IMG/VR virus record: IMGVR_UViG_3300049919_000280
Span: 1 to 19,681 of that record
Length of the DNA: 19,681 nt
Reading direction: 5' to 3' (one strand)
Source of the DNA: a virus
Taxonomy: Duplodnaviria > Heunggongvirae > Uroviricota > Caudoviricetes
Positions 10,878-19,084 of the stretch are shown here, piece after piece. The notes below the pieces were generated by a model. That model was given only the letters and a program-made list of their open reading frames with translations. It did not search any database and had not been told where the DNA came from. A program made the translations under genes and the position numbers. Each line of letters opens with the position of its first letter. Within the stretch, counting starts at the first letter, position 1.

Positions 10878-11459
10878 ATGAAAATATCCAGCGTAGTGTT
10901 GGCGGCAGTTTTGTCGCTCGGGATTTTTATGGTTTCCAATCAGGTTAAAAAGGCAGAGCCAGTTATACTTACGCCTGAAATCGTTGCACCAAAAAAAGTT
11001 GAACGTCCATTATCCACGTCACAGAAAAAGAACTTCGCTATCATCACGGACACATATAATGTCAGTGAAGTTCTTGTGAAGGATGTCTTGCATTATGTAG
11101 ATAAACATGCGGATAAGGTATTTCCGCGAAGGGAAGATATTCTAGCGATCATTGGAATCGAATCTAGCTGGAACCCAAAGGCTAGGTCTAATCTCAAGTA
11201 TGATCCTGCCCTCGGACTCACGCAAATACGACCAAAGACATGGTCTTCGCTGATATCTCATCCAGATGAGCTGAACGTAGTAGAAAACCAGATTCGATAT
11301 GCCGCCAAGATATTGAAATATCAGTATCGATTGACAAAAGACAAAGATGCTGCTATCATTGCATATAATGCTGGGTATGGTAATTGGTTGAACGGAAATT
11401 ATGGGTTTGATTACTTACTCAAATTCAAAGAAGAACTTAGTCGATACCAAACTGTTTGA
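10878..11459 (+). CDS. Lytic transglycosylase (SLT domain) with an N-terminal membrane anchor or signal
   Basis: IIGIESSWNPKA (catalytic Glu), ALGLTQI and AIIAYNAG motifs; hydrophobic N-terminus. Confidence 0.9.
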   Translation: MKISSVVLAAVLSLGIFMVSNQVKKAEPVILTPEIVAPKKVERPLSTSQKKNFAIITDTYNVSEVLVKDVLHYVDKHADKVFPRREDILAIIGIESSWNPKARSNLKYDPALGLTQIRPKTWSSLISHPDELNVVENQIRYAAKILKYQYRLTKDKDAAIIAYNAGYGNWLNGNYGFDYLLKFKEELSRYQTV

Positions 11460-11463
11460 GGAT

Positions 11464-11652
11464 ATGATGAGAGACATTACGACAAAAGAATATGCTGATG
11501 CAATACCAAAGTGCTGTGCATATCAGACCGTCGAGGATCATTCTGATGCCCTAGGTCTTTGCTGGGGCTTAGCTTCGGCACTGAAGTCAGGGATAGAAAT
11601 GGATTGTAGTGGATGTGAATTTAATACTCTTGACGAAAAGTATAGGAAATGA
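11464..11652 (+). CDS. Small Cys-rich hypothetical protein
   Basis: GAGGA RBS at 11458-11462 favours the ATG at 11464 or 11467 over the track's 11401; CC...C...CSGC. Confidence 0.65.
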   Translation: MMRDITTKEYADAIPKCCAYQTVEDHSDALGLCWGLASALKSGIEMDCSGCEFNTLDEKYRK

Positions 11653-17150: not shown

Positions 17151-17239
17151 GGGTGATTGGTAGAGATGGATTATTGCACCAGTCTTGAAAACTGGCGTTC
17201 CGAAAGGGACCGTAGGTTCGAATCCTACATCACCCGCCA
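17151..17239 (+). tRNA. tRNA-Ser(TGA)
   Basis: GGGTGAT/ATCACCC acceptor stem, CCAGT-CTTGAAA-ACTGG anticodon arm, long variable arm, TTCGAAT T loop, G73 and encoded CCA. Confidence 0.95.
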
Positions 17240-17242
17240 CAT

Positions 17243-17317
17243 ACTGCTGTCGTCTAGTGGCTAGGACACTTGGTTTTCATCCAAGTAAAGTGGGATCGAA
17301 ACCCATCAGCAGTACCA
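17243..17317 (+). tRNA. tRNA-Glu(TTC)
   Basis: ACTGCTG/CAGCAGT acceptor stem, CTTGG-TTTTCAT-CCAAG arm, atypical ATCGAAA T loop and encoded CCA. Confidence 0.92.
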
Positions 17318-17333
17318 GTTCTTTTACAATTTA
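17318..17333 (+). promoter_or_regulatory. rrn-type boxA motif, copy 2
   Basis: GTTCTTTTACAATTTA. Confidence 0.6.
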
Positions 17334-17446
17334 AAATCTTTCGATGCATGGTGCTAGGGAGCTATCAGATATACCTTCAAGGTAGCCGCGAGGTTCTGGT
17401 GCGCAGGTCAAATGGGTTCGAATCCCACGAAAGATTTTAAATTGTA
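17325..17446 (+). ncRNA. tRNA-like structured RNA in a 19-bp terminal stem
   Basis: Perfect TACAATTTAAAATCTTTCG/CGAAAGATTTTAAATTGTA stem. A T arm (TGGG-TTCGAAT-CCCA) is stacked on it. The core has a TACC-TTCAA-GGTA hairpin and a GCC-GCGA-GGT hairpin. No CCA. Confidence 0.65.
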
Positions 17447-17454
17447 GTAGAATT

Positions 17455-17529
17455 GCCGGTTTAGCTCAGTGGTAGAGCAACCGCCTTGTAAGCGGTAGGT
17501 CGTCTGTTCAATCCAGACAACCGGCACCA
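17455..17529 (+). tRNA. tRNA-Thr(TGT)
   Basis: GCCGGTT/AACCGGC acceptor stem, GCTC D stem, ACCGC-CTTGTAA-GCGGT arm and encoded CCA. Confidence 0.95.
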
Positions 17530-17542
17530 AAATATGTAGTAG

Positions 17543-17593
17543 AATCAACGAGTTACGAAATAGTTTGACAAGAAATACCGAAGTCGATATACT
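17543..17593 (+). promoter_or_regulatory. IHF-consensus site plus sigma70 promoter
   Basis: AATCAACGAGTTA (identical to the 17061 copy); TTGACA(17565)-17 nt-TATACT. Confidence 0.8.
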
Positions 17594-17612
17594 GGCTTCA
17601 CTGAAACAAAAC

Positions 17613-17628
17613 GTTCTTTTACAATTTA
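17613..17628 (+). promoter_or_regulatory. rrn-type boxA motif, copy 3
   Basis: GTTCTTTTACAATTTA, about 15 nt after the predicted transcription start. Confidence 0.6.
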
Positions 17629-17787
17629 ATGATTCTCGGAAACATATTGTGGCGCTCGTTGCGAAACGTAGCTGTGATATGCGGATAAGACAGTAGCTGG
17701 GTTGGAATAGAGTCCTTTAGTGCCGTCAAGGTCGAAAGATACAGCGGAGAACACGTTCCCAGTGAAGCAGAGAATTATTAAATTGTA
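17620..17787 (+). ncRNA. Unidentified structured RNA in an 18-bp terminal stem
   Basis: 17620-17637 pairs with 17770-17787 (one G-U). Internal hairpins include CATATT/GATATG, CTGGG/CCCAG and GTC-GAAA-GAT. Confidence 0.6.
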
Positions 17788-17796
17788 GTAGAATCA

Positions 17797-17813
17797 TGTT
17801 CTTTAAAAATTTA
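17797..17813 (+). promoter_or_regulatory. rrn-type boxA motif, copy 4
   Basis: TGTTCTTTAAAAATTTA. Confidence 0.6.
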
Positions 17814-18225
17814 GATAAGTTGTGTGGAAGGTATGCTTAGAAGCAGCAATCCTTTAAAGAGTCGGGCAAAGGCAGTTCGCAGAAACACATAAGCGATAGT
17901 GATCGGTCTTAAAAATCTGATCGGCGTAAGGACATACGTTGGGATCACACCCACGAAATCGGCTGAAAAGTGAAATAGGTTACAGTCAAGACCATACACG
18001 GGGTCACAACGGGGGGCGAAAGCAGCCTCAAGGACAAGCTCGGAACTTGTTGAGACATAGTAACACGCCAAGGTAGCATCGCAAACTACTGAAGGCAATG
18101 GGGTTGCTCCCCTGATCACGAATGGCGGCTGAATCACTTGGTAAAGTACGGAGGCACCCCAGAAATGGTAAGGCTGAAGTCCTGTTTGGTCGTAATAGCA
18201 CACCACATAACTTATCTAAATTTTT
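17805..18225 (+). ncRNA. Large ncRNA containing a 23S rRNA H43-H44 (uL11-binding domain) mimic with a ~326-nt insert
   Basis: 23-bp terminal stem 17805-17827/18203-18225. Bases 17827-17862 match 23S 1055-1090, and 18191-18203 match 1092-1104, with compensatory pairs. Confidence 0.8.
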
Positions 18226-18228
18226 GTT

Positions 18229-18244
18229 CTTCTTTTACAATTTG
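18229..18244 (+). promoter_or_regulatory. rrn-type boxA motif, copy 5 (variant)
   Basis: (GTT)CTTCTTTTACAATTTG. Confidence 0.5.
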
Positions 18245-18249
18245 AACGC

Positions 18250-18343
18250 ATTACAAACTTGTCTGGTAAGTTAAACGTTAGACTACTATGCATGGGAATG
18301 GATAGGGTATTGGGCGACAATCCGATGCAGACAAGTTTGTAAT
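18250..18343 (+). ncRNA. Unidentified structured RNA in a 16-bp perfect terminal stem
   Basis: ATTACAAACTTGTCTG/CAGACAAGTTTGTAAT encloses a 62-nt core with two hairpins. Confidence 0.55.
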
Positions 18344-18363
18344 ACACTTTCTAACGAGAGTGT
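18343..18363 (+). repeat. Spacer hairpin repeat, copy 1
   Basis: TACACTTTC-TAAC-GAGAGTGT; 20/21 identical to 19316-19336. Confidence 0.7.
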
Positions 18364-18375
18364 AGATTAAAGTGA

Positions 18376-18451
18376 GGTTGTCCTGTCGTTTAACTCTAGG
18401 ACGCTTGGCTCATAGCCAAGAAATGCTGATTTTGATTCAGTCCAGACAACT
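18376..18451 (+). ncRNA. Degenerate tRNA-like element (CAT anticodon)
   Basis: GGTTGTC/GACAACT acceptor-like stem, CTTGG-CTCATAG-CCAAG arm and GCTGA-TTTTGAT-TCAGT T-like arm. There are 3 extra nt before the acceptor 3' strand and no terminal CCA. Confidence 0.55.
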
Positions 18452-18463
18452 TTACCCGTTTTA

Positions 18464-18538
18464 CGATGCTCATAGCATAATGAGAATGTGACCGGCACTG
18501 AGGTCGGGAGATACGTGGCTAGAACCCATGGGGCATCG
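18464..18538 (+). ncRNA. Degenerate tRNA-like element (irregular anticodon loop)
   Basis: CGATGCTC/GGGCATCG stem, GCAT/ATGT D-like stem, CCGGC-ACTGAG-GTCGG arm and CGTGG-CTAGAAC-CCATG T-like arm. No CCA. Confidence 0.5.
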
Positions 18539-18544
18539 CAGGAT

Positions 18545-19084
18545 GGGCGCATAGCTCAGTTGGTTAGAGCACTCGACTCATTAATAGTAATATTGTGCAC
18601 CACCGAAAAATGCACTGGTAGTCTTCAGGAGAAGGCTAAGCTCCCTTTCCCGTTGAGCAATCATCGGTAACAGCATCCCCTCCGACGCTGGCGTAACAGT
18701 GCAATCGAAAGACGGTAAAACAACGTAAAGGATGTTTAAGGGCAACCGTAAAGCATTGTGTATCGTTGGGTGAATTTCTTCAAAGTCGGCGAACGCTAAA
18801 TCACAAAATTTTGTGATATGCCAACGCCGAGCCAAGCTTAACAATCCTAAAATATAGTTGAAAATCTAGCCACGTCGTGGAAAAACAGGGATTGTTAAGA
18901 AGGTGTAGAGGCTTGACGGAGAATACCTAAAGCAAAGTAATAGCTAAGGTAAAGACAAAGTCCAGACCACGAACAACAGCATGGTGAAATCGAAAGAGAG
19001 TAGTCACAAAGTGCAGAGTTGGCGTTGAAAAACGAAGTGGTACGAATCGATTGGTCGTAGGTTCAAGTCCTACTGCGCCCACCA
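18545..19084 (+). tRNA. tRNA-Ile2(CAT), split by an intron (exons 18545-18581 and 19045-19084)
   Basis: The joined exons give a 77-nt cloverleaf: GGGCGCA/TGCGCCC acceptor, CTCGA-CTCATAA-TCGAT arm, TTCAAGT T loop, A73 and CCA. The body resembles bacterial Ile2 (GACTCATAATCG..TTGGTCG), though Met cannot be fully excluded. Confidence 0.85.
18582..19044 (+). mobile_element. Group I intron (463 nt, no ORF) after anticodon base 36
   Basis: The 5' exon ends in U and the intron ends in G. P1 is CAU/GUG with a U-G wobble (18579-81/18595-97). P3 is 18776-81/18918-23, P4 is 18786-91/18825-30, P7 is GGCTT/AAGTC (18910-14/18958-62), and P8 is TACCT/AGGTA. Confidence 0.9.

Follow-up and report, generated by a model that had tools for sequence, protein, structure and literature searches.

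The GTPase-associated centre of 23S rRNA, which comprises the end of helix 42 (H42) together with H43 and H44 (E. coli positions 1051–1108) and is known as the 58-nt uL11/thiostrepton RNA, is supported inside the ribosome by neighbouring rRNA and proteins. Here, we analysed a 19,681-nt stretch of caudoviral DNA (the window; IMG/VR record IMGVR_UViG_3300049919_000280), which is part of a 98.8-kb virus contig and in which all coordinates are given as positions in the window. Between ~17804 and 18226 on the + strand, it encodes a phage RNA element of ~420 nt whose flanks are a near base-for-base copy of this centre, interrupted by an insert. The likeness includes the H43 loop UUAGAAGCA with the equivalent of A1067, the segment UUUAAAGAGU and the GUAAUA loop with the equivalent of A1095, and the pairs of H43 and H44 covary. 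In contrast to the ribosomal domain, the phage element is a free-standing gene in a tRNA region with a 24-bp closing stem of its own, extends into a 322-nt branch at the 1090/1091 bulge followed by UUUG, and has an A in place of U1101. With a probability of about 80%, we interpret the insert (17863–18184) as an integral, lineage-variable expansion domain of this phage non-coding RNA that is not removed from it.

Both ends of the RNA rebuild H43 and H44 (E. coli 1055–1105) with the end of H42, and the pieces that reproduce the GTPase-associated centre correspond to 17829–17862 and 18189–18202. BLASTN searches against a real 23S gene (locus L214, 2213 bits to the large-subunit (LSU) rRNA model) returned 17834–17859 (26 nt, 92%) and 18191–18203 (13 nt, 92%) as the sole scaffold matches. 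A reading of the window made earlier without database searches (the sequence-only reading) had placed an interruption of ~326 nt in H44 after U1090 (17862), and this position is confirmed by highly abundant contigs of real 23S rRNA from four freshwater RNA libraries. These contigs align to 17826–17862 and continue as GCGTAATAGCTCACTGG, so that their divergence after 17862 independently fixes the break point of the copy, which restarts at G18189. By the anatomy of its relatives, the interruption consists of the 322-nt insert and a UUUG linker. The element does not qualify as a 23S rRNA gene or fragment (RF02541), as no LSU match was found anywhere in the window.

Instead, the element belongs to a family of mimic RNAs that we defined operationally in this analysis and that is absent from Rfam 15. 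Its members share the closing stem, an H43 with a UUAGAAG(C/U)AGC loop region, UUUAAAGAGU and an H44 top with a GUA(A/G)NA loop, as well as a branch at the 1090/1091 bulge with a 4-bp base helix (P1), an invariant C and a UUU(G/A) return, and they lie among same-strand tRNA genes of a phage; all of these features are present in the window. Among GenBank phages, BLASTN searches turned up parts of the element in three Pseudomonas phages (pf16, UNO-G1W1 and Astolliot) and one Aeromonas phage (4_4572), where the matches are all unannotated and all located between tRNA genes. Scans of IMG/VR with patterns built from the conserved 5′ and 3′ motifs added dozens more members, leading to 47–48 distinct complete elements after deduplication (phage isolates, IMG/VR, and a few bacterial assemblies). 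A metagenome scan with CTTGGTNAAGTN7CACCCC was too loose, since most of its more than 120 hits were chance coding matches and ~10 were true members. Every distinct element consists of an H43 copy, UUUAAAGAGU, an insert, and then UUU(G/A)-GCGUAAUAGC-ACACC, and the scaffold columns that define the family (17804–17862 and 18189–18226 in the window) are invariant or nearly so in the alignments. A search of 185,579 species genomes gave just eight occurrences of the 5′ motif, in two real rRNA genes and six family members, a rarity which indicates that the family is essentially viral.

The insert is found at the same spot in 48 of 48 distinct elements and ranges from 58 to 328 nt in length, with a median of 137 nt and 32 of the 48 below 190 nt; the insert of the window is the second longest of these. 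A strict pattern for an uninterrupted mimic, such as the sequence-only reading had suggested looking for in related phages, retrieved just a real 23S gene. A looser pattern hit mostly coding sequence and in addition two phage loci: L224 (3705–3790), an insert-free, self-closed copy of ~65 nt, and L254 (minus strand, ~1090–1160 of a 402-kb phage contig), which has only a 22-nt hairpin at the insertion site. These comparisons show that the site behaves as an expansion site, which is occupied by nothing, by a short hairpin or by longer inserts whose content falls into several classes without detectable mutual similarity. The insert-free relative demonstrates that a mimic lacking the branch is possible; it does not imply removal of the branch where one is present.

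P1 is formed by pairing between the two ends of the insert. The first four nucleotides after GAGU are complementary to the last four before UUU(G/A) in 44–46 of 47 relatives, and each position of the helix shows four to five pair types, with CGGG/CCUG in the window and AGGG/CCCU, GAGG/CCUC, UCGA/UCGA, CGAA/UUCG or GAAU/AUUC elsewhere. In an alignment of 29 sequences, 100% of the P1 cells are paired and all four pairs are compensatory. Moreover, the C that directly follows the 5′ strand of P1 is present in all relatives (47/47 and 48/48 in two counts of distinct elements). The branch is thus shown to form a three-way junction in the H44 bulge. As P1 joins the ends of the insert, it clamps both halves of the mimic together, and the mimic can fold with the insert present.

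Our comparison further shows that the window belongs to the largest insert class (28 of 47 elements; members include L085, L078/L118, L093, L087, L009, L014, L068, L305, and L011), which is characterized by a conserved junction, the helices P2, P5 and P6, and a 3′ arm common to all 28. Pseudomonas phages pf16 (KU873925.1, 29.4–29.6 kb) and UNO-G1W1 and Aeromonas phage 4_4572 have inserts of this class too. From its base, the arm consists of two base pairs (18148–49/18179–80), a purine-rich 3×3 internal loop, the helix Px (GGC/GCU, 18153–55/18173–75), an invariant ACC/UAAG internal loop, three further base pairs (18159–61/18166–68) and a GAAA tetraloop (18162–65). Px is paired in 26–28 of the 28 arms by GC, GU, UA, AU, or CG pairs, with variants such as GCC/GGU, GUC/GAC and GAC/GUC. 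The third pair of the distal helix is GU, GC, AU, or CG among relatives, and the tetraloops are of the GNRA or UAAN type. In line with this, positions 18144–18180 of the window fit the arm pattern of the class, NNC-A-CC-[CCR-tetraloop-YGG]-UAAG-GNN, with AAGU in front of it and P1 directly adjacent. When RNAalifold was applied to 13 class members without structural hints, it recovered P1, the whole arm, H43, the H44 top and the closing stem, with 19 of 29 pairs compensatory; the recovered arm pairs include the outer two, with changes from A-U to G-C and from C-G to G-C, A-U, or U-A. The arm is contiguous with P1 on one strand and, for this reason, probably stacks on it.

P2 is a long-range helix of this class with a GGC/GCC base, a GA bulge and a covarying extension, and was assigned by inspection of relatives. 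Its counterparts are GGCAGUUCGC/GCGAACUGAGCC in L085 and GGCACG/CGUGAGCC in L011, L305 and L087, and complementary strands of differing sequence are also found in L093, L050, L068, L042, L009, and L078. Related contigs have a G at 18133 and a C at 18134, which would restore two P2 pairs in the window. Counterparts of P5 and P6 that covary or are conserved are found in L085, L078, L118, L014, L068, L093, L087, and L009, and the strand that joins P2 to the arm follows the common form CUUGGUNAAGU in the window's class.

Across the 29 aligned sequences, 97.7% of the cells in the proposed helices are paired, compared with 82.6% after shuffling (a value as high as the observed one came up in 0 of 500 shuffles) and 31–57% when the partners are slid by one to three columns, and 16 pairs change on both sides. 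Besides P1, covariation is seen in the scaffold: the inner five pairs of the closing stem (helix 1) covary, the H43 look-alike (helix 2; 92% identity to the real 23S gene) is 98.9% paired with three covarying pairs, and the H44 top (helix 7) is 100% paired with one pair changing from C-G to U-A. The whole element folds with a z-score of −3.8, which is due to the 24-bp closing stem; the reverse strand of the insert gives z = +0.94. The insert is thus structured as judged by covariation, not by energy.

The complementary segments listed for the insert in the sequence-only reading are all present where it had placed them. Two of them, GGTAG/CTACT and GGGG/CCCC, have counterparts in relatives, whereas the others lack such support; for TGATCGG/CTGATCG, one related contig with compensating changes lends slight support. 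Taken together, the earlier observation stands for the exact place and borders of the interruption, and falls for several of the listed pairings and for a richness in hairpins beyond chance. Its proposal of a functional domain displayed on a uL11-site scaffold is retained in outline, since junction and arm are conserved and covary, along with P2, P5 and P6 conserved across homologues, while the peripheral hairpins are not.

Several points weigh against an integral expansion domain. The insert alone folds at −88.1 kcal/mol compared with −84.5 ± 5.2 kcal/mol for dinucleotide shuffles (z = −0.69; 22 of 100 shuffles are at least as stable), which is within chance, and most of its interior structure therefore leans on a handful of relatives. 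P2 is imperfect in the window, and its duplex energy is not above that of shuffles there (z = −0.14) and modest in L085 (z = −2.15). Furthermore, an insert-free relative exists, and a mixture of interrupted and uninterrupted copies is, on its own, the textbook mark of an intron or a mobile insertion. Contigs from the RNA libraries that lie within the insert (17989–18139 at 98%, 17961–18086, and 18073–18189) are compatible with retention and do not prove it: they are shallow and possibly derive from DNA carry-over, and an excised intron would leave them too. No contig in the four shallow libraries crosses either insert border with at least 31 nt on each side, and no joint across the whole insert is listed for them; we did not count the latter as evidence.

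Table. Features of the mimic RNA and its insert in the window.
Feature	Position	Strand	Remarks
Closing stem, 5′ strand	17804–17827	+	24 bp with 18203–18226; from folding
H43 look-alike (23S 1057–1081)	17829–17853	+	loop UUAGAAGCA; A1067 equivalent at 17839
Junction and H44 5′ strand (1082–1090), UUAAAGAGU	17854–17862	+	invariant or nearly invariant; copy breaks after U17862
P1, 5′ strand CGGG	17863–17866	+	base helix of insert; pairs with 18181–18184
Junction strand CAAA	17867–17870	+	C17867 invariant
P2, 5′ strand GGCAGUUCGC	17871–17880	+	tentative partner 18125–18135, GA bulge
Lineage-specific body	17881–18124	+	P4, P5, P6, GUAAGGACAUAC motif, window-specific hairpins
Window-specific hairpins	17900–23, 17940–53, 17990–18005, 18013–29, 18033–51	+	predictions only
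GUAAGGACAUAC motif	17926–37	+	loop motif R-A-A-G-G-G-C-A-U-C
P4	17979–83/18060–64	+	
P5	18072–76/18086–90	+	loop with CGC
P6	18100–03/18109–12	+	GGCAAUG before it; class form GGGN-loop-NCCC after GCAAUG
P2, 3′ strand GCGGCUGAAUC	18125–18135	+	tentative in window
Joining strand ACUUGGUAAAGU	18136–18147	+	CUUGGU and AAGU invariant or nearly so in class
Conserved 3′ arm	18148–18180	+	abuts P1 3′ strand, no spacer
P1, 3′ strand CCUG	18181–18184	+	
UUUG linker back into H44	18185–18188	+	UUU invariant
H44 look-alike top and 3′ strand (1091–1103)	18189–18202	+	G18189–C18199, U18190 extra, C18191–G18198 closing the GUAAUA loop
H44 loop GUAAUA	within 18189–18202	+	A1095 equivalent at 18194, then ACA
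Closing stem, 3′ strand	18203–18226	+	folding and alignment

Some relatives carry further variation in scaffold and insert. Pseudomonas phage Astolliot (L003) has tandem mimic RNAs at 1063–1385 and 1399–1568, the first of which is more divergent (GGGCUUAGAAGUAGCC ... UUUGGUGUCAUAACACGCC) and contains an insert of ~270 nt. L014 (2858–3265), a member of the window's insert class, harbors a second insertion of ~130 nt between H43 and UUUAAAGAGU, indicating that the scaffold has at least two expansion sites. Changes in the otherwise invariant H43 loop to UUAGGAG or UUAGAGG, at the equivalents of positions 1069/1070, are seen in the class members L087 (4040–4339), L009 (4764–5050) and L017 (10084–10344). 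Within the insert, the R-A-A-G-G-G-C-A-U-C loop motif recurs in a covarying hairpin of many class members and resembles GGUAAGGCUGAA of the arm; a tertiary contact by this motif is possible. Two candidate hairpins lie near this motif, a homology-based one (17919–25/17938–46) and an alternative (17900–03/17920–23), and the changes in a related contig fit the latter better.

Among the alternatives to an expansion domain, the insert might be a nested passenger, i.e., one of several unrelated structured RNAs lodged at a permissive H44 bulge, which would have a role unrelated to the GTPase-associated centre and would be stabilised and processed by way of the compact, protein-protected mimic and its closing stem. 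The mutually dissimilar insert classes, a size range of 0–328 nt and the second large insertion elsewhere in the scaffold of L014 would all fit such a passenger. The best-conserved parts of the insert, however, are the P1-abutting arm and the junction strands beside the mimic, which suggests joint work with the scaffold, and neither the insert of this element nor those of 14 other loci match Rfam, so that no known passenger is at hand. We therefore consider a passenger unlikely.

Alternatively, the insert could be a largely neutral expansion with drifting hairpins, as in rRNA expansion segments, in which only P1 is needed to close the mimic. This would agree with a folding energy no better than that of shuffles, with a related contig in one RNA library that lacks 17895–17960 and 17982–18072 (66 and 91 nt), and with peripheral hairpins that are not common to L085 and other class members. 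Against drift speak the invariant nucleotides and compensatory pairs of the arm as well as the recurrence of P2, P5 and P6 across very different environments. This case covers the core of the domain only, and the periphery may well be neutral; for the insert as a whole, we regard neutrality as quite unlikely.

As one of two readings, the sequence-only reading had offered a divergent group I-like intron, self-splicing or otherwise processed, whose removal would join U17862 to G18189 and thereby create the functional mimic. The insert does resemble group I introns (RF00028) in its length of ~320 nt, its position inside a structured RNA gene of a phage tRNA region, the U that ends the left flank, and the terminal G (G18188) that precedes the right flank. 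The insert-free copy in L224 would also fit an intron, and a true group I intron at 18725–18985 (RF00028, 56.4 bits), 540 nt downstream of the element, indicates that such elements are active in this genome. In contrast to these introns, whose conserved core (P3–P9) includes the guanosine-binding P7, the insert has no detectable catalytic core. A cmscan search of 17530–18560 against all Rfam families, group I among them, with permissive filters gave no match to an intron or any other family at E ≤ 10, and the same library detects the true intron downstream. Natural group I introns are ~200 nt or more in length, which the 322 nt of the window meet and 32 of the 48 homologous inserts (<190 nt) do not. 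The inserts of 58–190 nt and the 22-nt hairpin are homologous to that of the window in position and structure (P1, invariant C, UUU(G/A)), and they cannot be ribozymes. Moreover, both ends of the insert are engaged in a covarying border helix that they form together, and not with an internal guide, which is the opposite of a group I P1/P10 arrangement. The bases that had been assigned to P1-like (GAGU with 17875–78) and P10-like (18189–91 with 17871–73) pairings, i.e., the proposed guide at 17871–78, are placed in P2 by the relatives. Finally, the suggested omega-G is not conserved, as the position of G18188 is a G in 42 and an A in 6 of 48 relatives. The self-splicing intron therefore does not hold, and removal of the insert in this way is very improbable.

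Minus-strand protein coding, for which a 131-aa open reading frame (ORF; 17811–18206) exists, is the most improbable reading, since a Pfam search with this ORF found nothing at E ≤ 1, indels of any length separate the relatives, in which base pairing and not codon content is conserved, and all flanking tRNAs are on the + strand.

Three further resemblances of the insert were followed and rejected. BLASTN searches against real 23S rRNA gave chance-level hits only, so that the insert is not a copy of another 23S part such as the sarcin-ricin loop or H42. AGUA...GAA is not a bulged-G (loop E) motif, since the final base of AGU(A/G) forms a covarying Watson-Crick pair with the nucleotide preceding P1. 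A likeness of GGUAAGG(C/G)UGAA to the RNase P specificity domain has no support in Rfam and was treated as coincidence.

The 3′ part of the window is occupied by RNA genes of the + strand, among them several structured stretches without assignment. The mimic RNA is located downstream of genes for tRNA-Ser, tRNA-Glu and tRNA-Thr (17151–17529, + strand). Throughout the family, a tRNA gene lies within 1.5 kb of 36 of 48 elements, often at a distance of 6–20 nt, and all 160 neighbouring tRNAs are on the strand of the element. A conserved protein neighbour was not found: when 608 ORFs within 4 kb were clustered, no protein family occurred at more than four loci. The lengths of the inserts vary irrespective of reading frame. 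A near-consensus sigma-70 promoter (TTGACA-17-TATACT, 11/12; 17565–17593, + strand) precedes a stretch of ~150 nt without assignment (17640–17790), which is followed by the mimic RNA. At four loci, a phage tmRNA adjoins the mimic or is located within a few kb of it (L049, 11048–11373 next to 11394–11563; L058, 1848–2052 next to 2145–2297; L037; and L065). The mimic is therefore embedded in islands of RNA genes related to translation (tRNAs, tmRNA). Three of the six members in bacterial assemblies also adjoin tRNA genes, and two of these, in Acidithiobacillus sp. (L302, NZ_CP175559.1) and an Oscillatoriales cyanobacterium (L299), lie inside arrays of 8 and 15 tRNA genes; they could represent prophages or integrated tRNA-array units. 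Downstream of the element in the window, a tRNA-like sequence at 18379–18449 reaches 28.9 bits (Rfam threshold 29), with mismatches in the acceptor stem and no ARAGORN call. The sequence at 18546–18582 (GGGCGCATAGCTCAGTTGGTTAGAGCACTCGACTCAT), upstream of the true group I intron, resembles the 5′ half of a tRNA, which suggests that 18545–19000 holds a tRNA(CAU) whose anticodon loop is interrupted by this intron.

The RNA chain exits the H44 bulge after the U1090 equivalent, forms P1 and continues with the invariant C, and returns via the irregular hairpin arm abutting P1 and the UUUG linker to the G1091 equivalent. The RNA would be transcribed on the + strand together with the neighbouring tRNAs and presumably be cut out at its 24-bp closing stem. 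Its ends may then fold into a uL11-binding domain that, outside the ribosome, could serve as decoy or sponge to a ligand of the GTPase-associated centre. The simplest target would be uL11; others could be the uL10/bL12 stalk, a translational GTPase, RelA, or a defence enzyme of the host directed at this rRNA site. The GNRA-type loop of the arm and its ACC/UAAG loop might provide a tertiary brace for the isolated mimic or a second binding surface, and the lineage-specific body may tune or extend the decoy role. A decoy function, with binding of uL11 or of any other ligand, is purely inferred. Two papers describe defence nucleases that cut rRNA and say nothing on the site of the GTPase-associated centre; a decoy for such a nuclease is conceivable, though nothing links these enzymes to this site. 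More speculatively, the RNA could be a modular decoy, in which a constant uL11/GTPase-centre bait is combined with an exchangeable module in the H44 bulge, whose conserved arm and variable body would recruit or sense an additional partner (for example, a stalk protein, RelA, a translational GTPase, or a defence nuclease of the host). Each insert class would then adapt one and the same anti-host RNA weapon to particular hosts or defences, a version that we regard as rather doubtful.

To our knowledge, no natural uL11-site mimic of this kind has been described. No description of a phage mimic of the GTPase-associated centre was found in open-access full texts, although the subscription-only literature may hold one. 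GOLLD, ROOL and the other RNAs of Rfam 15 gave no match to the element at the gathering score or at E ≤ 10, nor to the elements of 14 other loci. Based on these negative searches of Rfam 15 and open-access full texts, the mimic represents a widespread and apparently undescribed RNA family of phages. For annotation, this implies that interruptions of rRNA-like sequence in phage tRNA regions should not be labelled introns or rRNA fragments. For experimental work, the domain offers several handles: the clamp P1, the arm with its tetraloop, which may serve as brace or second surface, and the body, which may be dispensable or confer specificity.

Among known systems, the expansion domain resembles rRNA expansion segments and the variable domains of RNase P RNA and tmRNA in its fixed insertion point, its lineage-variable helices and an undisturbed core. 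Those are parts of essential cellular RNAs, whereas the host fold here is a phage-borne copy of a ribosomal domain, and the main insert class has a conserved arm with invariant loops. Like GOLLD and ROOL, the mimic is several hundred nucleotides long, contains multiple helices, and is phage-borne beside tRNAs, but its architecture is entirely different. With the rRNA-mimicking leaders of L1, L10(L12)4, L20, and S15, it shares the principle of an RNA off the ribosome that copies the rRNA site of a ribosomal protein. In contrast to these leaders, which act in cis in ribosomal protein operons and are usually loose mimics, the phage RNA is stand-alone and near-exact and has no ribosomal protein gene nearby. 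If the family truly works off the ribosome as a stand-in for the GTPase-associated centre, it would be the first known case of a stand-alone RNA gene that mimics a functional centre of rRNA, with the tRNA mimicry of tmRNA and Y RNAs as its nearest precedent.

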